Assembly (NCBI GenBank): GCA_965233585.1 | Contig: CBDDTI010000273.1 | Coordinates: forward strand, 1 to 17,204 | DNA: 17,204 nucleotides | Direction of reading: 5' to 3' | Origin: a bacterium | Lineage (GTDB): Bacteria; SAR324; NAC60-12 | In this document: one piece after another, positions 3,652 to 17,204 of the stretch | How positions within the stretch are numbered: the first letter of the stretch is position 1 | How the letters are laid out: every line of letters starts with the position of its first letter | The notes under the pieces: generated by a model | What the model was told of the DNA's origin: nothing | What the model saw: only the letters and a program-made list of their open reading frames with translations | Databases searched by the model: none | Program-made: the position numbers and the translations under genes

Positions 3652-3722
<71 letters not shown>

Positions 3723-4323: not shown

Positions 4324-4992
4324 GGCTGAGTAAAAAAAAAGTTGTTTCTCATCCAAGATTTTCGACAAAATTCGGGCTGGCGGACGGATTTTTTTTTATA
4401 TACAGTGTATGTGGGCTGTGTAAGCAATCCCCCCTGCGTAACCATCAATAGGGAGCTGTATTCCAGAGAAAGTTACCGGTGTTCTTCTAGGAGCATGCAC
4501 TCGAGTTGTCCGGTGATCATGGAAGGACAAAGCGCTGCTGTACTGTAAATCTACTGGTACATGTTTGGCGCCTATGCAAGCCACCGAGCGGGCAACAACG
4601 AGTGCTCAAGGAAACTTACTGAATTTCTTTCGCGTGTTCTTCTAGGAGCGTGCGCCGAGTTGCGCGGTGATAACAGAAGGAAAAAAACTGGTCCTATCGT
4701 AAAGCTACCGCTACATGTTTAGCGCCTATATGCATGCAATGGGCTACCGAGCGGACAAGAAACAGTGCTCAATGAAACTTGTTGAATTTCTTTCTCGAAG
4801 ACTTTCTTCGACATTTTGATGGAATGGACGGAGATTGTATAACAGAGAAGGTTATGCCCCAGCTTTATGCCTAGCATCTTTGCGTATACCAGTTTTTTTT
4901 TTGTTTCAAAATAAATATTAAAAAAATCACGGTCAGGCAGGAAAATTGGGGCGGTCGGGGATGATAAACAACTTTTTTTTTTTTACTCGGCC
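4324..4992. mobile_element. MITE, probably PIF/Harbinger type
   Basis: TIRs GGCTGAGT(A)nGTTGTTTCTCATCC (4324-4354) vs reverse complement of 4959-4992 GGCCGAGT(A)nGTTGTTTATCATCC. Flanks are TTA / TCA (TNA-type 3-bp TSD, 1 mismatch). Internal ~155-bp diverged tandem duplication at 4479-4630 / 4634-4794. Confidence 0.65.
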
Positions 4993-5024: not shown

Positions 5025-5667
<643 letters not shown>

Positions 5668-5736
5668 ATTGATTTATTTCATACAAAGCAAAAAAAAAAA
5701 AAATTAAAAATATAACTCCCCAAAAGCCAAAATTTA

Positions 5737-6064: not shown

Positions 6065-6133
6065 TATTCCAACCCCTTATCTCTCTAACATACATACAAA
6101 ACACACATGTACACCGACACAGACACACAAATA

Positions 6134-6226
<93 letters not shown>

Positions 6227-6883: not shown

Positions 6884-8643
6884 GAATGTCGGTAAATACC
6901 AAAATGGAACATCGTACACTCGCGTGAGCGCTCGTCATAACTGGGAAGCGCGTGCACCACTCTGAGTCAGTTTCTCGAAAGGATTCTGAGCGAAAAATGT
7001 TCTAAGTCCAAGCGGCTTTTCTAGCTTCTGTGGAAGTTGAGAACAATTTTTGCAACTTTCGATGGCGTCCGTCTCCCTACCCTTTTCCTAACCCTATCTT
7101 TACTTTACTGAAAATCCCCTACCTAAACCGCAACCATCGTCGTTAATTATTTATTCAACAAAAAGTTCAATCGAAAGTTGTTCCCCGAGTCTCGGTTTTT
7201 CGGCTGGAATGAGATGAGTAAAAAAAGAACTCTCCAAAGGAACATCAAGAAAGAAAACGAAAAAAAAAAAAAAAACAAGATAGAAAAACGTCTTCAACAG
7301 GGTTCGAACCACCGACCGATCAATCGGAAATCGTCAAACTTTCAACTGCGCCACGAGGGATTAGTCGACCTCTGACTGTCGAAGAGCTCATTTTTTCGTT
7401 ACATGGTTTTTCTTCGAATTCGTCCTGGCTCTCGGAGCCCATCCTGCGCCTGGAAAAACTGTATTATTCCATCGTAAAAAACATTAAAACAAGGCTCGTC
7501 TGCGGAATAGACCGATTGTATTATTACCGCCTGGGCACGAGGTTCGGGGCATCCCAGCCGTTCGATCATGCAAAAAGCGTTGCTTTCTGTACTTTTCTGA
7601 GGCATTTTCGTGGCCTAGCATGGCTTTGAACGACTGTTTTTTTTTTTTTTTCAGCTTGAGGAAAATGCTAGTTTGGATAATATCTAGAATGGAGCGAAGA
7701 GCATTTGTCTTCAAAAAAAAAAAAGAAATAAAGAAAGAAAGAAAGAAAGTGCGAGTCCCGGGAGTGATCTTCGAGGCCCTCATGCGTGCATAGATCGGGT
7801 GGGCTGTGTTATCACCACTGGTACACTGAGCGTTCGCCAGGTGACAAAAGCCAATCCAAACCAAACAAGCACACCATTTACAGAACCGACACAGGAATCA
7901 AACTCAAGTTCATCATCTTTTTTTTGGCTCTCCTCAAGGCTCATTTCAAAAAATAAATAAATGATAAAGTGATAAAAACGGCTTCTCAGTTTTGAGTTCC
8001 CAGGGAACAAGAAGGGCCGAGCTGATCGCAGCCAGGCGATGTACTTGATCGACATCCGTGCTTGTGCTCAGAACTGAGCAATTTTCGTCGCGAAAGAGTT
8101 CGGTCTTGCCAACAAGCAAACTTTCTAGACTTTTCTTGCAGTGTTGGTTTCTTCTGGGTTCGACAATGAGAGCGAATATGGTGCGCTGTGCAAGTCGATC
8201 GACTGTCAGGCCTTCGAAGGTTTGCCCGCCAGTTGCACAACTTTTCTTTGAAAAAAAAAAAAGGAACAACCATTGGCTAATCGAAAAATCTAAGAACCGT
8301 TAAAAAAAAGAAAGATTCTTGCAGGAACAAGGGACAGGAGAACTGGAGAGGTTGAAAAGATGAGCGAGCTTCACTGTTTTCAGCATAGCAAAGTTGTATG
8401 AACAAGGCCGGGTTCTGGTCCGGATGCCCCGTCTCTAACCCAGACCCTAATAATACAATCGGTCTATTTTCTTGTTTTACACCTCGAGATTGAAACGTCC
8501 ACAATGGAACAAACCTTTCCTCATCACGTCGATCTTCCCCCGTTGCACTGAGTCAAGGTGTACTGAAAAGAACCAAGCGCGTTCATTGATGACGAGCACT
8601 CACGCGAGTGTACGATGTTCCATTTTGGTATTTACCGACATTC
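6884..8643. mobile_element. Non-autonomous Mutator-like (MULE) DNA transposon
   Basis: 55-bp TIRs (6884-6938 / 8589-8643, 1 mismatch) starting GAATGTCGG, and a perfect 9-bp TSD AGAAAATGC (6875-6883 and 8644-8652). No transposase ORF. Confidence 0.9.
7291..7357 (-). repeat. tRNA-derived Pol III unit inside the MULE
   Basis: Minus strand has A box TGGCGCAGTTG (7343-7353), B box GGTTCGAACCC (7300-7310) and downstream T-runs. Confidence 0.55.
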
Positions 8644-9016: not shown

Positions 9017-9789
9017 CCTACATATATCCTAGAAAAAAGGAGGTTAGGAAACGCCGATGCCGATTCCACGAGAGCCTCGGAAAGTCGACGGTCACATCCT
9101 GTTGAGTTCTACTGGTCTCAGACGTCATCAACCGCACCTATTTTTAGTTTGGAAATCTAAATCTGGATAGTGGGAAATACCCCTTCGCAGGTTTGGCGGC
9201 CACCCTCACTTTCAAATTCAAACTCAAACGATGGAGGCTGTCTCAAGCCAACAACAGCAACGAAAGCTCAACGACAAGAAGATGTTTATCCATGTGGTTA
9301 TGAACGTGTTGCTCTTTCAAAGAGCTTGGGGGAAGGCAAAGAACTGCCACTCGCCGTGGCTCAGTGAAAAGGTATGGATTCTTGTCGGGGTTGTGACGAC
9401 TCGTACGGATCGACAGTGTGTCCATCGCCGCCAATCCATCCCCTTCCCTTGCTCCCTTTCTTGCGAAGGTCTTGACTCTTGAGCTTACGCCCACTGCCAA
9501 ATGGTAACGGTTCTTTCCTCGTCGCAAAGAAAGACCAAAGACCAAAAAATAAACACGGTACTTTTCCTTTTCACAGAGGAAATGCGAAATGTGATGGTCA
9601 AGAAGCGTTCGCCAGAGAGGTACCATTGATGAAAAACAGCTCATTTCTAACAGGCCACTGTCTTGCAGTGCGGCAAAAGAAAAGGAAAAAAAAACAAAAA
9701 ACAAAGGACGTCCACTTGAGCAGATCTCTTCTGATCTGCCGCAGTAGATGTGTTGAGGGTGGTTCTGGCCCACTTGGAGGGTAATTTTT

Positions 9790-10032
9790 TTAACCCTTAA
9801 TTTCCCGCCATTTTACCTTAATATTTCCCGCCATTTTAACCCTAAGTTTCGCGGACCCTAACCCTAATTTTTCAGTTCTAACCCTAAGTTTCTCTTCCAA
9901 CCCTAAACCTAAGTTTCCCTTCCAACCCTAACCCTAAGTTTCCCTTCCAACCCTTATCCTAAGTTTCCCTTCCAACCCTAATTTTTCCGTCCTAACCCTA
10001 ATTTTCCAGGACTCTAACCCTAGCCCTAAGTT
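9790..10032 (+). repeat. Degenerate telomere-like tract: CCCTAA units embedded in ~20-25-nt higher-order repeats
   Basis: Repeated AACCCTAACCCTAAGTTTCCCTTCC-type units, with two TTTCCCGCC motifs at the left edge. Confidence 0.85.
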
Positions 10033-10413
10033 ACCTTGTGTATGGAAATGGACAAAAAGGGTAGGCAGTCCACACACCTACAGCACCCAGGGATTACCTT
10101 ATTTTCCATCATATTCCTCACAAATACTGGATATACTGAGCAGCATAACTCTGAGCAGCATACCCCGTGAGTATTAAATGACGACCACTAATGCACCATT
10201 GAGGGAGGAAGTGGTTCAGCCCCTAAGCCATATTAAACCACACCTTGTGCTGTAATAGTGGTGGTGTCCTGCCCGAATGCCTTGAGGTCGATTTGTCTAG
10301 AAAAAGAGTTCGAGATGACAGGTGGTGGACACTTGTGGGTCTAAAAATAACAACAATAATGGGATTGGTAAAATATTAAAACGTTTCGTATATGGTTGCA
10401 TGGTCTCCCACCA

Positions 10414-10463
10414 AAAATGGGCCAAAGGTCATGGCTTCCCGCCAAAATGGGCCAAAGGTCATG
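10414..10463 (+). promoter_or_regulatory. Tandem DR1 nuclear-receptor elements separated by an E2F-like motif
   Basis: GGGCCA-A-AGGTCA at 10419-10431 and 10449-10461 (30-bp period), with TTCCCGCC at 10436-10443. Confidence 0.45.
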
Positions 10464-10901
10464 AACCCATGCATCGCGTCCGCTTCACATGTGGGCCTAT
10501 GTGGGCATAGATCAGCCGAAAGAGCTACTGTGCTGTGTGTAAATCTTCGCCGTTTTAAAAAAAATAGCTTCACAAAGAGTATTTTTCTTTTCCTTCAGGG
10601 TCACCCATTCAAAGTGCTAACCCCACCTGACGGTGCTTGACATTGATGATCGAACGATCGACTCGGAACCTAGACGCTGAGCTAGAGCTGAAAATCGTTT
10701 CTATTGTGAATCGACCTCGACAATGAGTTCTCAAACGTATGCGTACATCCCGAGTGTGTCGAGATCTGTCTGTGAGAAGTCCTTAACAATAAGCGTACAT
10801 CGTGAGTGTACCGAGAACTGTCTGTGAGAGGTCCTGAACGACAACCATTCACGATCTCAAACATAAGTGCCTGTTCCTAAGGGCTAACCCTTTGTGGTAC
10901 G

Positions 10902-11648
10902 ATGGAAGATGATTTTCAGATTCTGTTCGACTACCTGAAAAATGTACGTGAATTGGCTGAGAAAGACAAAGCCGACTCTGCTGAAAACTCACCGGGTGAT
11001 GAGGAAAAGAAATGCGTGCACGAAGCTATACAGACGGAGGAAGCCTACGTTTGTTGCAAATGTGGTCTTGTGCTCGAGGACATCTTCCAACCCGACATTC
11101 ATTGGTGTGAGCATGCGTTGATGCCGCGTATTTACAGCGGCACGGACCGTCTGAATGCTATGAACAAAGCCTTGATCAACTTTCTCGACAAGGTTAGTTT
11201 CTGCACCTACCTGCCGATGTACACCTTGGAGGAACGACTCCGTGATATGAAAATCGACAGCGGCTTCAAGAGCTTGAACTATGCGATCTGCGTGATGTGC
11301 ATTCTCGAAGACGACGAACAAGCTCAAGAGCAACTCCGTCCCTACCTGCCCCGTTCTGACGTGGCCTGGGCGAGAAGTCTGCGTCTACTTTCACCCGTCC
11401 CTGAGATATTTGTCAGGAACTGGTTGAGAAATCTGCTCAAACCAGCTCGAAGGGATCTGTCCGATCGACAGAAGAAACGCTTCGCTACCAATTTCGAGCG
11501 CTTCGACGACGTTGAACGTCGAACGATGCAAGATCTGATTTCGTCCTACCGTGCCGGTTTGGATTGGAGTACGAATGACTTGGAAAAGCTACCCCCTCCC
11601 GTTGAGACACGCCCTTTTCCGCTTCTCTGTGGCCGTGTGCAAGAATAA
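10902..11648 (+). CDS. Viral-type protein with N-terminal TFIIB-like zinc ribbon (putative transcription factor)
   Basis: 248-aa intron-less ORF with CVH-x10-CCKCGLVLE, matching the C-x-H...CxxCG[LV]V ribbon of TFIIB-like/late-transcription proteins of large dsDNA viruses. The helical remainder is not recognised. Confidence 0.65.
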   Translation: MEDDFQILFDYLKNVRELAEKDKADSAENSPGDEEKKCVHEAIQTEEAYVCCKCGLVLEDIFQPDIHWCEHALMPRIYSGTDRLNAMNKALINFLDKVSFCTYLPMYTLEERLRDMKIDSGFKSLNYAICVMCILEDDEQAQEQLRPYLPRSDVAWARSLRLLSPVPEIFVRNWLRNLLKPARRDLSDRQKKRFATNFERFDDVERRTMQDLISSYRAGLDWSTNDLEKLPPPVETRPFPLLCGRVQE

Positions 11649-11734
11649 GTGAACGAGAGGCTGAAAAATATACTTTTTATTATCACGCATCACATTTTAT
11701 ATCGCATATTCTATTTTTCAAGAAAGCTCAGTGA

Positions 11735-12633
11735 TCAGATGTTATAGTGTGTCATGAGTTCTGTATGAATGCGTTTGATCATGTCTTCGGAAAGATCCTT
11801 GGCAAAATGCAACTGACAGTAAAACTTGAGGGTGGTGTCCTGGGCAAAATGGGTTCCTCCAAAACGATACTCAGGTTTTTTGTCACCATTGATGCGATGA
11901 AACGGTCTATTGTCTGTGTGCGAGAAAACCAACACTGAGTTCAGGTGAATGGCAAAGACTCCTTCTGAATTTCTTGATAAGCTCAGCACATACTTCTGAC
12001 CGGCGATTTGTTGGATATGTGACACTGACTTTCCCAAGGCCGAGGTTAGCTTTGGTGCTGCAGTGGCGTTATCGAAAACAACATGATTGGGGGAGAATGG
12101 TGGCGCAACATGTTTACCAAATACTGATGTTGTGTTGGCAATGTGGAAATACAGGGCATCCCCACCAAATCCGGTGAATTCATAGCCAAATCTGATATGT
12201 ACAGGTGTAAAAGAGAGGTTTGTAACAATGGGGTCGTTTGCTTCACAGACTTGAAATATGGCAAACGCTTTGTTGTTTTCGAAAAAGTTATCCATTTCAT
12301 CCCTGATCAACATGTCTCTGTTTCTTCCAAGAATCGCTGTTGATTATCTTTGGACAGAAGGAGCTTCTCCGTGGAGATGGTTTTGCCTGTAAAGTCCAAT
12401 AGGTTTCTTATCCTGTAATTATCTTTACTCGTCCTTTCGATCGACTGGAATCTGCTCGGGTGAACGTAAACGTAATAGTACGCATTCTGAGCAATGTAAG
12501 GGAGAAGGTGGAATGGATCTGACGGACCCGGCTCTCCTCGCAAACCGCTTTTTCCTCTGTCTCCACGTTCACCTTTCGATCCACGCTCTCCTCGATCGCC
12601 CTTTGGGCCTTTCATTTTCCTCACTCTCGTCAC
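11735..12633 (-). pseudogene. Collagen-stalk plus LamG/concanavalin-like head fibre/spike protein, split by one frameshift
   Basis: ORF 12307-12633 has 10 G-X-Y triplets (GPKGDRGERGSKGERGDRGKSGLRGEPGPS). ORF 11735-12313 ends in a LamG-like motif (IHLNSV...RFGG...LSEDMIKRIHTELMTHYNI). The downstream frame is open back to ~12343 (STAILGRNRDM), so a single-base indel joins them. Confidence 0.65.
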
Positions 12634-12666
12634 GTCTTCTTTCAGCTGTTCAGATACGGCTGCTTT

Positions 12667-12815
12667 GTCGTAAATGGGTAAAACGTTGTCTGTGTTGATG
12701 ATGATAAACTGTCCATGTTCATATTGGATAACAGGTCGTAGCTAGACACTCCACGAAATCCGTGTACACCTCTCAATGCCTGTTCGATATCTTCGTTGCC
12801 CAGTGGGGTGTTCAT
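12667..12815 (-). pseudogene. N-terminal fragment of adenain-like (Polinton PRO) cysteine protease
   Basis: Manual translation from ATG 12815 gives MNTPLGNEDIEQALRGVHGFRGVSSYDLLSN/(1-nt shift)/EHGQFIIINTDNVLPIYD. This matches the F-x-G-V...D-x-L-P...IINTD pattern. The catalytic G-x-H-W is absent. Confidence 0.7.
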
Positions 12816-12823
12816 TGTTACTA

Positions 12824-13642
12824 TTAGGAGAGGGATTTTCCTTCTAGAATAGCCAACACTTTTGGGTGAGATTGACTGTGATTTCTAAAAATAGCCTGTA
12901 CAAAGTCGGTATCATTTATCATCTTCTCTTGCAATCCACGCATGAAATGCTGAACATTGATGAATTTGGATTCTGATGTTTTCGTGTACGTTTCACTAAG
13001 CTGTTGCAGTCCTGAAAACTTTTGTGTAGCTCTCGGAATAGTTAAACTCCGCTGCTTGATCTGCTCGAGTTTGGTTTTAGATGCAGAATACCGTCTATCT
13101 GATGGAACGATCGTTCGTACCATATTTTCGAATGGATACCTGGACAGATAGGTTCGATTCGTTTCGTTCACCAGCATCTTGTAATCGCACACAATCTGCT
13201 TTTCTACATCGTCTATAATTTCCTCAAGTCGTGCTCTGAAACCAAAACCGGGATCTTCTTGGTAAACCTGTAACAGTTGAGGTCTGAGCGTGAAGTAGTT
13301 GCTTTTCAAGAATTCTTCGGGTATACCTTTATCAGCCAAAAACCGATGAAAAACGAGCAAAAGAATTCTGTCGAATTCGTTATCCTTCGTAACTTGTAAA
13401 GAGGGAATGGGAGACGTAGGAATTCGATTTTTCTTTCGAACATCTGCAATAGAATCTCTTACTGCTCCGGTGTTGTTGTCATACCCAAGTAGCGAGGATG
13501 ACACCACATTCACAATGGATCGAGGATTGATGAGTTCTGGGTTGTTCTTGAAGTAGCGCTCGTACAGACCCTTGATGCGAGGATCTTTCTGCAACTTAAC
13601 AATAGATGATCTGCTCAGTTCGTGGTCAGGTATTCCAGTCAA
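12824..13642 (-). CDS. Unknown viral protein, 272 aa (probably the C-terminal part of a ~355-aa gene)
   Basis: Long intron-less ORF with a TTG start overlapping the upstream stop. It ends 8 nt before the protease ATG and is duplicated at 15860-16599. No motif recognised. Confidence 0.6.
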   Translation of the reverse strand: MTGIPDHELSRSSIVKLQKDPRIKGLYERYFKNNPELINPRSIVNVVSSSLLGYDNNTGAVRDSIADVRKKNRIPTSPIPSLQVTKDNEFDRILLLVFHRFLADKGIPEEFLKSNYFTLRPQLLQVYQEDPGFGFRARLEEIIDDVEKQIVCDYKMLVNETNRTYLSRYPFENMVRTIVPSDRRYSASKTKLEQIKQRSLTIPRATQKFSGLQQLSETYTKTSESKFINVQHFMRGLQEKMINDTDFVQAIFRNHSQSHPKVLAILEGKSLS

Positions 13643-13890
13643 AAACTTTCCTCAAGCCACTGATAAAAAGAGCGGTAATTGTATTGACCGTCTCGCTGTT
13701 TCAATGGAATAGTGCCGATGACTTCCCACGACGATTTGCGTTTTCTGATGATGTGGTGAGGATGCTTGTTCGTAAACTGCAACGTCTTCAATCTTTTCCT
13801 CTTCGGTATGGGGAACGGCATAGATCGATCACCCAACCGCTCCACACGATACGGAAAGTGGTTTTGGAACCGAACGATTAAATGCTCCAT
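13639..13890 (-). CDS. Basic 83-aa viral ORF (probable N-terminus of the above; NLS-like PKRKR, RKRK)
   Basis: ATG at 13890. The stop lies in the run GAAAGTTTTTGA; one extra T would fuse it with the 272-aa ORF. Confidence 0.5.
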   Translation of the reverse strand: MEHLIVRFQNHFPYRVERLGDRSMPFPIPKRKRLKTLQFTNKHPHHIIRKRKSSWEVIGTIPLKQRDGQYNYRSFYQWLEESF

Positions 13891-13910
13891 CTTACTACTA
13901 ATAGGAGGAC

Positions 13911-13993
13911 TTTTTTCGCAGTTTTTTTCGCAGTTTTTTGCGCAGTTTTTTGCGCAGTTTTTTGCGCAGTTTTTTGCGCAGTTTTTGTCGCAG
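13911..13993. repeat. 12-bp minisatellite (T6-7[G]CGCAG) x7
   Basis: CAG ends at 13921, 13933 ... 13993. Confidence 0.95.
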
Positions 13994-14125
13994 ATTCTAA
14001 CTCATTCCCATCCACATCAGCTTAACTTTCCAAGCGTTATGAACTCCTTGACTTCTACCATCACAGTTTATGAAGATTGTGTGAACAATCTATGGCTAAG
14101 ACGAACATTTCACACTCAATCGTTA
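13990..14125 (-). pseudogene. Diverged paralogous copy of the ATPase 3' end
   Basis: Encodes ECEMFVLAIDCSHN/FINCDGRSQGVH vs ATPase NCERPVLAIDCSRNQYFTYCNGTSQAVH. DNA similarity to ~14318-14470 continues past the stop. Confidence 0.75.
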
Positions 14126-14375
14126 TGCATGCGTATGCGTCAGCTGCCACTTTCGTGGTTTGTCTTCATAGGGGTAGTTTAGTCGAGGCGTCAAAGTTCC
14201 AGGCTGCAACCCGAGCATACTCCGCGTGCGCTAACGTGTGTCTGAGCCACGCCGCCTGTGACGTCCTTCATTTCCTTACCCACTAACAATTTTCCAGACT
14301 TCACTGTCGATCAAACTCACAGTTTCCAACCCATTCCCATTCAATCACACGCACACCCGCGTTACTTTCGAAGCA

Positions 14376-15859
14376 TTATTCAAAATGAACTGCTTGACTT
14401 GTACCATTGCAGTAAGTGAAGTATTGATTGCGTGAACAGTCAATGGCTAGAACAGGTCTCTCGCAGTTATCAAGCAGCTTCTCGTATAGCCTGTAAATCA
14501 AATTAGATTTGATACACTTTCCACCGAACAGCGTGTCGATGTAACGCTTGATGTTGGTTTTGTCAGTGAATCGGAATCGATAGAGAAACCTTGTGTTGAT
14601 CTTCATGTCCATCACGTTGTCAAAGCTTTGTGATAGGAAGAAGACGTTCAGTTTGTAATGATGAGTGTACATGGTGAAGAACTTGTAGAGACATTCTCGC
14701 TGGTTTCCATGCTTCAAGCCCATAATGCGTATGTCGTCTATGATAACATAGGATTCAGGTTGGATGCAAGTTTTCTCGATCGATTCTGGCATCACGCTGT
14801 AATGCTTCAAAACCATACCATCTTGTCGATATTCTTCAGGAGATGTGTTTGAAATCACAACCAATCTCTTTTGGTTTGACGATGTGCAGGAGCTTCTTCA
14901 AGAAGAAACCGTTATAATGGAAACCTCCCGACGTGCTCTACCGACACCGCTCTCAATTGAGCTTGCCCAAGATGCACTGACCAAAGTGCAGAGTCACCGA
15001 CATTTGGGAGTCATCTTCTCACACGACCTCCGGTGGAACAATCACGTTGATTTTATACTGAGCAAAGCAACGCGCCTGCTGTCGGTCCTTCGCCGACTGC
15101 GGTCATCATTGGACCAAGAGTCCCTTTCGCACATGTACTTAACCTACATCAGGCCGATCTTGGAGTACGCCTGCACGGCATGGGGTAACCTTGGGACTAC
15201 ACAGGTGGACCGCCTGGAACGCTTTCAAAGGAGAGCAGCCAAAATCATCCTCCGCCGCCCGCTATTTGTGCCCAGTAACCATGATGAACTCCTGGCAACC
15301 ATTGGCTGGCCTTCCCTGGCCTCAAGAAGGAAATACTTCCAGGCAGTTCTTGGATATCGAATGGCTACCAGCAACGTTCCCCAGCACTTGAGAGACTACA
15401 TCCCTCCCAAGCCAACCCACATGCACAACACTAGAAAACCACCTTTCTTCCAACTCCCCACTACGAACACCTCTCTAATGCTTAACTCTCCTCTCTACCA
15501 AGCAGCAGATACTTTCAACTCTCTTCCTGCAGTTCTGCAGTCTGCCTCAAGTCTCACATTCTTTAAAAACGGTGCCGCACTATTCTTACTCACATGCCAA
15601 TGTTCATGCAGTAAGCACACTAGTAAGTAAGTAGACCTCACATCACACATCCTTCCCAATCAATGCCCTTACACTGGCGTCTCGCCATATACAAGGTGTA
15701 ATAAAGATAAAGATAAAGATAAAGAAAGACTTTCCAGCGTTGCTTTGACCGAGAAGTAGAACATTCTGCCTCCCATCCTTTCAACGAGGGATAATTTCCT
15801 CGAACGATGGTTTTGTTGTATATGTTAAACCAGGTACTCTCAGCTTTGGAGAAGAGTTC
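14376..15859 (-). pseudogene. A32/FtsK-HerA-family viral DNA packaging ATPase, interrupted by a LINE
   Basis: Walker A NVLLLGQSNAGKS (GQSNAGKS at 15727-15750) continues after the LINE as FFLKKLLHIVKPK/RLVVIS. Walker B is YVIIDD, followed by the THHYKLNVFFLSQ motif typical of Polinton ATPases. Extra-A frameshifts near 14870 and 15780. Confidence 0.9.
14909..15721 (+). mobile_element. 5'-truncated non-LTR retrotransposon (CR1/L2-type LINE)
   Basis: RT C-terminal motifs HLGV..DLRW..HV, YxxYIRPILEYA..W, LERFQRRAAK, LxxRR, FNSLP; stop at 15630; 3' stem-loop TGGCG-TCT-CGCCA; (ATAAAG)4 tail; 6-bp TSD AAGAAA at 14903-14908 and 15722-15727. Confidence 0.93.
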
Positions 15860-16847
15860 ACAAAGTCGGTATCATTTATCATCTTCTCTTGCAATCCACG
15901 CATGAAATGCTGAACATTGATGAATTTGGATTCTGATGTTTTCGTGTACGTTTCACTAAGCTGTTGCAGTCCTGAAAACTTTTGTGTAGCTCCCGGAATA
16001 GTCAAACTCCACTGCTTGATCTGCTCGAGTTTGGTTTTAGATGCAGAATACCGTCTATCTGATGGAACGATCGTTCGTACCATATCTTCGAATGCATACC
16101 TGGACAGGTAGGTTCGATTCGTTTCGTTCACCAGCATCTTGTAGTCGCGCACAATCTGCTTTTCTACATCGTCTATAATTTCCTCAAGTCGTGCTCTGAA
16201 ACCAAAACCGGGATCTTCTTGGTAAACCTGTAACAGTTGAGGTCTGAGCGTGAAGTAGTTGCTTTTCAAGAATTCTTCGGGTATACCTTTATCAGCCAAA
16301 AACCGATGAAAAACGAGCAAAAGAATTCTATCGAATTCGTTATCCTTCGTAACTTGTAAAGAGGGAATGGTGGACGTAGGAACTCGATTTTTCTTTCGAA
16401 CATCTGCAATAGAATCTCTTACTGCTCCGGTGTTGTTGTCATACCCAAGTAGCGAGGATGACACCATATTCACAATGGATCGAGGATTGATGAGTTCTGA
16501 GTTCTTGAAGTAGCGCTCGTACAGACCCTTGATGCGAGGATCTTTCTGCAACTCAACAATAGATGATCTGCTCAGTTCGTGGTCAGGTATTCCAGTCAAA
16601 AACTTTCCTCAAGCCACTGATAAAAAGAGCGGTAGTTGTTTTGACCGCCTCGCTGTTTCAATGGAATAGTGCCGATGACTTCCCACGACGATTTGCGTTT
16701 TCTGATGATGTGCTGAGGATGCTTGTTCATAAACTGCAATGTCTTCAATCTTTTCCTCTTCGGTATGGGGAACGACATAGATCGATCACCCAACCGCTCC
16801 ACACGATACGGAAGGTGGTTTTGGAACCGAACGATTAAATGCTCCAT
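15781..16847 (-). pseudogene. Second copy of the 83+272-aa ORF pair, C-terminally truncated at the duplication junction
   Basis: Protein matches copy 1 up to INDTDFV, then runs into ATPase 5' DNA. Confidence 0.75.
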
Positions 16848-17202
16848 CTTACTACTAATAGGAGGACTTTTTCGCAGTTTTTTTTCGCAGTTTTTTTGCG
16901 CAGTTTTTTTCGCAGTTTTTTTCGCAGTTTTTTTCGCAGTTTTTTTCGCAGTTTTTTTCGCAGTTTTTTTCGCAGTTTTTTTCGCAGTTTTTTGCACAGT
17001 TTTTTTCGCAGTTTTTTGCGCAGTTTTTTGCGCAGTTTTTTTGCGCAGTTTTTTGCGCAGTTTCTAACTCATTCCCTTCCACATCAGCTTAACTTTCCAA
17101 GCGCTATGAACTCCTTGACTTCTACCATCACAGTTTATGAAGATTGTGTGAACAATCTATGGCTAAGACGGACATTTCACACTCAATCGTTATGCATGCG
17201 TA
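15860..17202. repeat. Near-identical segmental duplicate of 12900-14135 (272-aa ORF, 83-aa ORF, minisatellite, ATPase 3' paralog)
   Basis: Identity begins at ACAAAGTCGGTATC (12900 vs 15860). Differences are scattered substitutions, one 3-nt deletion and minisatellite expansion. Confidence 0.97.
16868..17060. repeat. 12-13-bp minisatellite (T5-8[G]CGCAG) x16
   Basis: Expanded version of 13911-13993. Confidence 0.95.
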
Positions 17203-17204
17203 AG

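Follow-up and report, generated by a model that had tools for sequence, protein, structure and literature searches.

The window considered here, that is, the whole stretch of 17,204 nucleotides that was analysed, carries virus-like, intron-less and compact genes from about 10.9 to 17.2 kb. The question that this locus raises is what kind of element left these genes behind, and whether that element stands for a new lineage. The preliminary description saw in it an endogenous Polinton-like virus with an unusual gene set and a poorly described ancestry. We consider that the region is very probably what remains of an endogenous Maverick/Polinton (class Polintoviricetes, which includes the adintoviruses), now dead and rearranged. 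On the minus strand, the gene order is ATPase, ~355-aa gene, protease start, and collagen-like gene with its C-terminal domain; the Zn-ribbon gene is on the plus strand (Table 1). The sequence features named at the outset (ATPase motifs, protease start, intron-less ORFs) are all present, on the minus strand, and the genes have far more database matches than chance would give.

Table 1. Features of the window, ordered by position
Feature	Positions	Strand	Evidence and remarks
Tandem array of 19-25-nt units with CCCTAA (telomere-like) motifs	9788..10035
30-nt repeat (x2)	10399-10463
52-nt tandem repeat, 1.9 copies	10741..10839		just upstream of Zn-ribbon gene
Zn-ribbon, all-helical protein gene (248-aa ORF)	10902..11648	+	nearly intact; 37 homologues, alignment, two-frame tblastn
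C-terminal domain ORF (202 aa) of collagen-like gene	11735..12343	-	frameshift at 12307-12343 separates it from the collagen ORF
Collagen-like ORF part	12307..12660	-	~10 uninterrupted G-X-Y triplets (~12523-12609), then ~70 aa; direct reading, Pfam Collagen
Adenain-type cysteine protease remnant, residues 1-52 of ~169	12661..12815	-	frameshift ~12717-12720; family profile E 1.7e-11, 4.9e-6
~355-aa gene, copy 1	12824..13890	-	complete in length; split by frameshift ~13640-13650
12-nt minisatellite, about 6 copies	13911..13996		upstream of ~355-aa gene copy 1
Degenerate ATPase 3' remnant with stops (profile positions ~205-240)	14039..14135	-	profile E 0.0043
Packaging ATPase, 3' part (about residues 66-242)	14376..14908	-	Walker B and HH...Q block; frameshift ~14863-14870; profile E 6.8e-101
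Probable 5'-truncated non-LTR retrotransposon (LINE) fragment	14909..15721	+	open C-terminal ORF; (ATAAAG)4 tail 15701-15725
Packaging ATPase, 5' part (about residues 25-66)	15722..15859	-	Walker A; in-frame TGA 15781-15783
~355-aa gene, copy 2	15860..16847	-	same frameshift as copy 1 (~16600); 3' end cut at junction 15860
12-nt minisatellite, about 16 copies	16868..17063		upstream of ~355-aa gene copy 2
Second copy of ATPase 3' remnant, at window edge	17106..17202	-	profile E 0.0022

The packaging ATPase and the protease

All motifs of the packaging ATPase can be read on the minus strand, namely Walker A (GQSNAGKS, 15727-15750), Walker B (YVIIDD, 14733-14750) and the HH...Q block (HHYKLNVFFLSQSF), and they are invariant in 22 aligned relatives, taken from 79 homologues. 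These homologues were found with the C-terminal ORF among 88 candidate database proteins (E<=1e-3, best 2e-111), and the intact ones are about 242 aa long; in the window, the first ~24 codons were lost at the duplication junction. Pfam A32 was not matched by the protein, Pfam giving only weak AAA_14 matches, and a profile search of PDB sequences returned no match. The AlphaFold model of an intact relative (pLDDT 81), compared with viral models by Foldseek, had 105 matches at E<=1e-3. The top match was the FtsK-like protein of Drosophila-associated adintovirus 3 (E 6e-9, TM 0.57), followed by mimivirus, mavirus, Sputnik V3, A32-like and adenovirus IVa2 ATPases, and the solved structures matched were FtsK-type EssC/TcpA and the B204 packaging NTPase of STIV/STIV2, with moderate TM-scores overall (about 0.5-0.57). 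Judged by this modelled fold, the protein is an FtsK/HerA (A32-like) packaging ATPase, as had been proposed from its motifs.

The protease start, MNTPLGNEDIEQALRGVHGFRGVSSYDLL, reads from 12815 downwards on the minus strand. The adenain-like N-terminus that had been recognised is confirmed for residues 1-52; what had been overlooked is that the remnant stops at residue ~52 of the ~169 present in relatives, ahead of the catalytic residues including His, where it directly meets the collagen ORF. Out of 29 candidates, 26 were matched in the family search. When 12 relatives were scanned, Peptidase_C5 was listed in nine and reached the curated Pfam cut-off in four, and the integrase domain rve was listed in six and reached the cut-off in four; rve was also precomputed on seven of the 26 matches. 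In each case a single predicted protein contains both, with rve immediately following the protease, and the integrase link depends on merged gene models in the relatives. In the window, the protease and integrase family profile had no significant match past protease residue 52, and no Pfam rve was present. This absence of the integrase fits an internal deletion. Adenovirus offers a similar pair, with IVa2 models among the fold matches of the ATPase and Peptidase_C5 matched by relatives of the protease.

The accessory genes

The reconstruction of an orphan gene of ~355 aa was correct. It is a real, conserved gene: a 275-aa ORF had 54 database matches at E<=1e-3, 23 of them at E<=1e-30, and full-length relatives of 344-392 aa cover both window ORFs. 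Its orphan status also holds, no family, structure or atlas match having been found for the protein. In two database proteins (P0109 and P0124), the C-terminus of this gene is joined to the protease start. The basic N-terminal ~70 aa resemble a nuclear-localisation signal and are followed by a largely conserved Gly-Gly; because of these features and the position in the morphogenesis block, our guess is that it might be a virion or maturation protein.

The Zn-ribbon ORF, in which a frameshift near 11593-11618 alters the last ~18 residues, matched 37 of 513 candidate database proteins, and the alignment of this family revealed a conserved CxH ... CxxC-G-L-V-L motif. The 'TFIIB-type ribbon' of the preliminary description is a lead only, the Pfam and fold signals being weak and non-significant. 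Against Pfam Zn_Ribbon_TF, the window protein reached 13.7-15.7 bits, about half the cut-off of 29, with only the second knuckle aligned, and eight of ten family members gave a weak match (best E 0.024). Pfam TFIIB matched none of the ten, no cyclin-domain Pfam match was found, and NCBIfam TFB matched none of 15. The protein model, a poor one (pLDDT 43), has ~10 helices after the ribbon; its fold search returned no match at E<=1e-3 (E-values >=0.02, TM <=0.26), and 10 of the top 50 weak matches were named TFIIB/TFB and none VLTF3. The atlas leads were Pox_VLTF3 (0.88), TFIIB and a Preplasmiviricota cluster (range 0.85-0.88). With its Cys/His ... CxxCG-L-V-L ribbon followed by ~10 predicted helices, the protein may resemble the TFIIB/VLTF3 factors of Nucleocytoviricota, though nothing in the comparison is significant. 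The protein probably acts in transcription.

The collagen-like gene had been described as a 'collagen-LamG fibre'. The collagen run is real, though short (Pfam Collagen E 2.7e-5, 24.3 bits, just below the cut-off of 27.2), while LamG found no support, the C-terminal domain having no match in Pfam, PDB sequences, PHROG or phage tblastn. From the collagen run, a trimeric fibre-like protein comparable to the adenovirus fibre is a plausible guess; unlike that fibre, the C-terminal domain is without a detectable relative. We assign the gene to the element on the basis of the flanking element genes only.

It is unlikely that this gene, and possibly the Zn-ribbon gene too, came from another element or from the host, and that a deletion at ~12661 brought it beside the Polinton remnant. 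Such an origin would agree with the abrupt junction, where the collagen-like ORF has no 5' end and its frame continues upstream straight into the protease remnant, and with the opposite strand of the Zn-ribbon gene. But the collagen-like gene has the Zn-ribbon gene on one side and the protease remnant on the other, and relatives of the Zn-ribbon gene are linked by identically sized contigs to the ATPase in two other copies (38215, 34004) and to the protease in one (51125). In addition, coral polintoviruses with collagen-like proteins are reported in the part of PMC11131425 available to us.

Decay, duplication and a probable LINE insertion

This copy of the element is dead, and nothing in the fragment can be active. 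Positions 12900-14135 recur as a direct duplication at 15860-17202 with 96-97% identity, and the duplicated segment (about 2-3 kb) carries the old ATPase 3' remnant, which is found upstream of each ~355-aa gene copy, together with the ~355-aa gene, hence the two copies of the latter. At junction 15860, the 3' region of the ~355-aa gene meets the 5' region of the ATPase gene in a clean, novel and in-frame join. Farther along, a probable LINE fragment splits the ATPase gene just after Walker A, and the ATPase frame resumes on both sides of it. The duplication, the old ATPase remnants and the LINE fragment had all been overlooked.

That the tandem duplication (~3 kb) is an assembly artefact, in which two diverged haplotypes were placed in series, seems to us unlikely too. 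Divergence between the copies is limited to ~3% and to minisatellite copy number, and the second one runs off the window with its far end unseen, as an artefact would allow; against it are the clean, novel, in-frame junction and the database protein P0080, which has the same junction, though P0080 may derive from the same record.

On either side of the probable LINE fragment stands AAGAAA, at 14903-14908 and at 15722-27. These flanks are a probable target-site duplication, and only a probable one because the second AAGAAA overlaps the LINE tail. The 275-aa ORF of the fragment had no Pfam match; we take it to resemble LINE C-terminal regions.

The order of events may have been as follows. A frameshift would have arisen first in the ~355-aa gene, and an internal deletion would then have taken most of the protease and the downstream part, which in relatives holds the integrase. 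Next, the ~2-3-kb segment would have been duplicated in tandem, the copies now being ~3% diverged; this step is placed after the frameshift because both copies of the ~355-aa gene carry the same one. Finally, a 5'-truncated LINE would have retrotransposed into the ATPase gene just after the P-loop.

Affiliation of the element

Gene predictions from relatives merge the protease gene and an rve integrase into one, and on this ground the family is placed in the Maverick/Polintons (Polintoviricetes), and not in a new lineage. According to the accessible part of a preprint (10.64898/2026.06.19.733378), the pairing of an adenain-type protease and an rve integrase is typical of Maverick-Polintons. 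The ATPase fold, together with Peptidase_C5 and rve in the protease relatives, bears out an endogenous Polinton-like virus. Further traits shared with Mavericks are compact genes without introns and the presence of many family copies in genome assemblies; ATPase and protease relatives are linked in four other copies (17541, 38896, 41672, 30601), as judged from identically sized contigs. In contrast to a Maverick, the copy in the window has no recognised pPolB, capsid or integrase gene and no termini, its ATPase is missed by Pfam A32, and a ~355-aa gene of unrecognised fold lies between ATPase and protease. By Pfam, genes for pPolB, capsid proteins (double jelly-roll major capsid, penton) and integrase were found neither in 12 ORFs of 9.2-17.1 kb nor in 27 ORFs of 0.5-9.8 kb. 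Of the terminal inverted repeats and the 6-bp target-site duplication that bound a Maverick/Polinton, neither was detected in the window, which holds one end at most, and the 9.8-10.9 kb region has no inverted repeat partner there. The CCCTAA tandem array could represent either the element's left boundary or a minisatellite of the host.

The claim of an unusual gene set from a poorly described lineage is not well supported, given that the protease and rve pairing is canonical for Maverick/Polintons and the family is abundant. Moreover, the available portions of two papers (PMC11131425, PMC8502044) describe animal polintoviruses with lineage-specific unknown ORFs, with collagen-like proteins and with transcription factors of the zinc-ribbon type (VLTF3). 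For stony-coral endogenous polintoviruses, the excerpted source describes many high-frequency unknown proteins, a VLTF3-type factor and low-frequency collagen-like proteins (PMC11131425). The accessory genes of the window are of the same sort, by description and not by sequence; unlike in the corals, Pfam Pox_VLTF3 matched none of ten members of the Zn-ribbon family here at E<=1.

A Polinton-like virus or another member of the Preplasmiviricota outside the Maverick/Polinton groups, representing a poorly described invertebrate lineage, is improbable. It would account for an ATPase too divergent for Pfam A32, for window ORFs in which Pfam shows no pPolB or capsid gene, and for three of five gene types without family assignment, and a few animal ATPases do group with Aquintoviruses in the portion of the preprint at hand (10.64898/2026.06.19.733378). 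However, the same portion gives the protease and rve pairing seen in the relatives as a Maverick-Polinton trait, and the ATPase has its closest structural match in an adintovirus protein.

Nucleocytoviricota, too, have A32 ATPases, adenain-like proteases, TFIIB/VLTF3-type factors and collagen-like proteins. That the region derives from an integrated giant virus is nevertheless very improbable: many giant-virus A32-like ATPases are among the ATPase fold matches, and the Zn-ribbon atlas leads and weak fold matches point to giant-virus VLTF3/TFIIB, but the compact genes are of small size, copies of the family are numerous, the protease of relatives forms a fusion with an rve integrase, and the top ATPase neighbour is the adintovirus protein.

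Significance for the family

From established knowledge of the Maverick/Polinton group, intact members of this family would integrate by means of the rve integrase and would assemble a capsid, into which the FtsK/HerA ATPase would pump the genome, with the adenain-type protease serving particle maturation. The parent family is multi-copy and abundant across public assemblies, and the fragment is ordinary in kind, yet with a few uncharacterised accessory genes.

The packaging module and its viral affinities

The right part of the window, from about 10.9 kb to its right edge, carries compact ORFs that have strong database relatives, and it is a dead Maverick/Polinton fragment, that is, a decayed copy of a known kind of element. 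The sequence features noted in the preliminary description (Walker A, Walker B, HH...Q and the N-terminus of an adenain-like protease) are all present, and its reading as a Polinton-like virus is supported by the fold neighbours of the ATPase and by the protease and rve integrase found in relatives. The coordinates are collected in the table below.

Main features of the virus-like region
Feature	Position	Strand	Basis or remark
Packaging ATPase gene	15859 to 14376	minus	motifs and relatives
Walker A GQSNAGKS	15727-15750	minus	motif
Walker B YVIIDD	14733-14750	minus	motif; HH...Q block comes after
Insertion, 813 bp	14909-15721	plus	parts Walker A from next helix of ATPase
355-aa gene, copy 1	12824-13890	minus	
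355-aa gene, copy 2	15860-16847	minus	
202-aa ORF of collagen-like gene	11735-12343	minus	
Zn-ribbon protein ORF, 248 aa	10902-11648	plus	database relatives

The 173-aa C-terminal ORF of the ATPase has 79 relatives at E<=1e-3 among 88 candidates, and intact forms are about 242 aa long. Walker A, Walker B and the HH...Q block are invariant in the 22 of these 79 relatives that were aligned. The predicted ATPase is left unnamed by sequence libraries: Pfam gives weak AAA_14 matches only, and the family profile finds only chance-level matches among PDB sequences. An AlphaFold model built from an intact relative and the 22-sequence alignment reached a pLDDT of 81, and its best neighbour among viral models is the FtsK-like protein of Drosophila-associated adintovirus 3 (E 6e-9, TM 0.57). 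Further viral neighbours are the packaging ATPase of a mimivirus, the FtsK-HerA ATPase of mavirus, Sputnik V3, adenovirus IVa2 and many A32-like ATPases; the solved structures that match are the FtsK-type EssC/TcpA and the STIV/STIV2 B204 packaging NTPase. On these fold neighbours, the reading as a cellular P-loop NTPase, which the preliminary description had named as the finding that would refute it, is not supported. When the ATPase alignment was scanned over bacterial and archaeal genomes, 76 stretches matched the pattern and none of them was a relative.

Two weak matches lie to the left of the virus-like genes, one to the ATPase family profile (9483-9626, plus strand, E 0.038, profile positions 147-177) and a weaker, protease-like one by tblastn (9504-9632, minus strand, E 0.32). 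They are too weak to build on, and may be due to chance or mark the eroded remnant of a much older Polinton.

Protease and integrase

By itself, the window ORF beginning MNTPLGNEDIEQALRG (from 12815 downwards) receives no name from Pfam. P0109, a database protein related to the window ORFs, fuses the end of the 355-aa gene with a longer form of this ORF, and a search with its protease part gave 26 matches among 29 candidates, with intact forms of 169 aa. Twelve of these relatives were scanned: Peptidase_C5 (adenovirus endoprotease) was listed in nine, reaching the curated cut-off in four, and rve was listed in six, again reaching the cut-off in four. Several predictions run from the protease straight into the rve integrase core, and rve is precomputed on 7 of the 26 protease-family matches. 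The pairing of this protease with an rve integrase is the classical Maverick/Polinton signature. P0109 had no match among PDB sequences, nor did the protease among PHROGs.

The window matches residues 1-52 of the protease only (12815-12661), with one frameshift, and the remnant ends ahead of the conserved GGHHW block. Profile and tblastn searches with the protease and integrase found no integrase remnant in the window. In two protease-integrase relatives, the linker that precedes the integrase core gives a weak tblastn match at 4459-4551 on the minus strand (E 0.015 and 0.16); the match sits in a 163-bp tandem duplication (4479-4797) and is probably due to chance.

The 355-aa gene between ATPase and protease

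The orphan gene of about 355 aa that had been proposed is real, since full-length relatives of 344-392 aa extend across the two ORFs into which it is split in the window, one of 83 aa (from MEHLIV) and one of 275 aa. For the 275-aa ORF, 54 relatives were found at E<=1e-3 in a 50%-clustered library, 23 of them at E<=1e-30. No usable match was found in Pfam, PHROG or the atlas. About 70 aa at the N-terminus are basic, and a largely conserved R/K-G-G comes next. From its position and composition only, we infer that the 355-aa protein could be a virion or maturation protein.

Decay and duplication

The ATPase lost its first ~24 codons at the duplication junction (15860), carries an in-frame TGA at 15781-15783 and is frameshifted at ~14863-14870. 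It is further interrupted by the 813-bp insertion, which has a 275-aa open frame without a Pfam match, (ATAAAG)4 at its end and AAGAAA flanks, and which, by its family likeness, would be a 5'-truncated LINE.

The stretch 12900-14135 recurs at 15860-17202 with 96-97% identity, the second copy passing the window edge. Each unit consists of a degenerate remnant of the ATPase 3' end, a 12-nt minisatellite and the 355-aa gene. The same frameshift separates the 83-aa and 275-aa parts in both copies of this gene, so the duplication took place later than the inactivation. Judged from the window alone, the duplication may instead be an assembly artefact. The minisatellite that precedes the 355-aa gene is built of a TTTTTCGCAGTT-type unit, with ~6 copies at 13911-13996 and ~16 copies at 16868-17063. 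It is also translated in P0117, another related database protein, and is thus part of the family's intergenic region.

The collagen-like gene

This gene comprises about ten G-X-Y triplets (~12523-12609), then ~70 aa, a frameshift and the 202-aa ORF; its placement in the element rests on the element genes that flank it. The Pfam Collagen score lies slightly below the cut-off, and in PHROGs the collagen run matched tail-fibre families solely via its G-X-Y repeats. A LamG fibre had been proposed here. The C-terminal domain, that is, the 202-aa ORF, has no match in Pfam, PDB sequences, PHROG or tblastn against phage genomes, so that the name LamG is unsupported.

The zinc-ribbon protein

The product of the 248-aa ORF is probably a transcription-related zinc-ribbon protein. 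A database search with the ORF yielded 513 candidates, 37 of them relatives, and some of these represent up to 204 member sequences; a frameshift near 11593-11618 changes the final ~18 residues. With the window protein, Pfam Zn_Ribbon_TF reaches 13.7-15.7 bits, where the cut-off is 29, and it weakly matches eight of ten family members (best E 0.024). Neither the TFIIB cyclin domain nor Pox_VLTF3 of Pfam was found in these ten, and NCBIfam gave nothing relevant, with TFB absent from all 15 members scanned. Leads from the atlas (0.85-0.88) were a Preplasmiviricota cluster and Pox_VLTF3 and TFIIB clusters. The structural model shows a three-stranded ribbon and about ten helices at a pLDDT of 43, which makes it unusable as a model; Foldseek with it returned no match at E<=1e-3, and 10 of its top 50 carried TFIIB or TFB names. 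Among PDB sequences, the single-sequence search was empty and the profile search gave nothing meaningful; PHROGs had no match. The TFIIB-like identity given in the preliminary description is a weak lead, drawn from sub-cut-off Pfam scores, the atlas and non-significant fold matches. In a literature search that was not thorough, no mention of a polinton with a TFIIB-like gene came up in the text available, and one preprint, in its available part, deals with TFIIB in giant viruses only.

Related database proteins and surrounding repeats

From contigs of identical length, we infer that elsewhere the ATPase is linked to relatives of the protease in four cases and to those of the Zn-ribbon protein in two, and the Zn-ribbon gene to protease relatives in one. 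Four database proteins were not counted as independent relatives, since all four look like translations of the window locus or a near-identical one: P0001 and P0134 are 96-99% identical to the window, and P0080 and P0117 appear to have been translated through stops, which became W. They appear to be gene-calling artefacts on repeat DNA in public protein sets.

The left 9.8 kb contains a diverged repeat of ~600 bp, microsatellites and inverted repeats that resemble hairpins, with no recognisable coding sequence (Pfam on 27 ORFs gave one sub-threshold chance match); tRNA and Rfam scans of the window found nothing. The ~600-bp repeat (1465-2029 and 5096-5678, 68% identity) starts with (GA)n, ends in a hairpin-forming inverted repeat (arms 5426-5541/5567-5682, 93% complementary) and resembles a host repeat of the MITE or SINE type. 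A near-perfect palindrome at 2075-2276, with 72-nt arms that are 99% complementary, is made from a 55-nt tandem duplication. Inverted repeats of 60 nt (6884-6943 and 8584-8643, 95% complementary) lie 1.6 kb apart around a GC-richer stretch, where they may bound a small DNA transposon. At 3654-3721 and 6093-6226 there are long (CA)n/(CACG)n microsatellites, strongly skewed in GC and AT. A tandem array at 9788-10035 separates the gene-free left part from the virus-like genes. Its units of 19-25 nt contain telomere-like CCCTAA/AACCCTAA motifs, and it may represent either a telomere-like satellite in an interstitial position or the element's subterminal repeats.

Relation to known polintoviruses and significance

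According to the available part of a recent preprint, Mavericks, Polintons and adintoviruses make up a single class that occurs chiefly in animal genomes; its group 1 is defined by a cysteine protease, pPolB and an rve integrase (10.64898/2026.06.19.733378). In the available text on stony-coral polintoviruses, unknown proteins of high frequency are reported, as are collagen-like proteins and a VLTF3-type factor (PMC11131425); that on adintovirus-related viruses reports the conserved 'Adintoc' proteins, whose nature is unknown, as well as VLTF homologues and fibre-like genes (PMC8502044). As far as these texts go, the window gene set is thus of the expected kind, and the earlier claim of an unusual set from a poorly described lineage is largely unsupported.

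For annotation, the region is to be masked as a repeat and its ORFs kept out of host gene calls; some 'proteins' in databases seem to be mis-calls of such ORFs. A bolder proposal, which we consider rather unlikely, is that the family carries two conserved genes beyond the described core: a TFIIB-like transcription initiation factor (zinc ribbon plus cyclin-like), and a new 355-aa component of the morphogenesis module, fixed between packaging ATPase and maturation protease and perhaps a precursor cut at a conserved Gly-Gly. Viral paralogues of basal factors are otherwise typical of giant viruses; if the TFIIB-like reading is true, this would be a small nuclear DNA virus with a basal-factor paralogue of its own. 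The wider value is modest and lies in the family rather than in the window copy: it offers a conserved, uncharacterised 355-aa gene in the morphogenesis block and a possible TFIIB-like factor, both of which, if confirmed on intact copies, would widen the accessory repertoire of animal polintoviruses and bear on gene exchange between polintoviruses and giant viruses.
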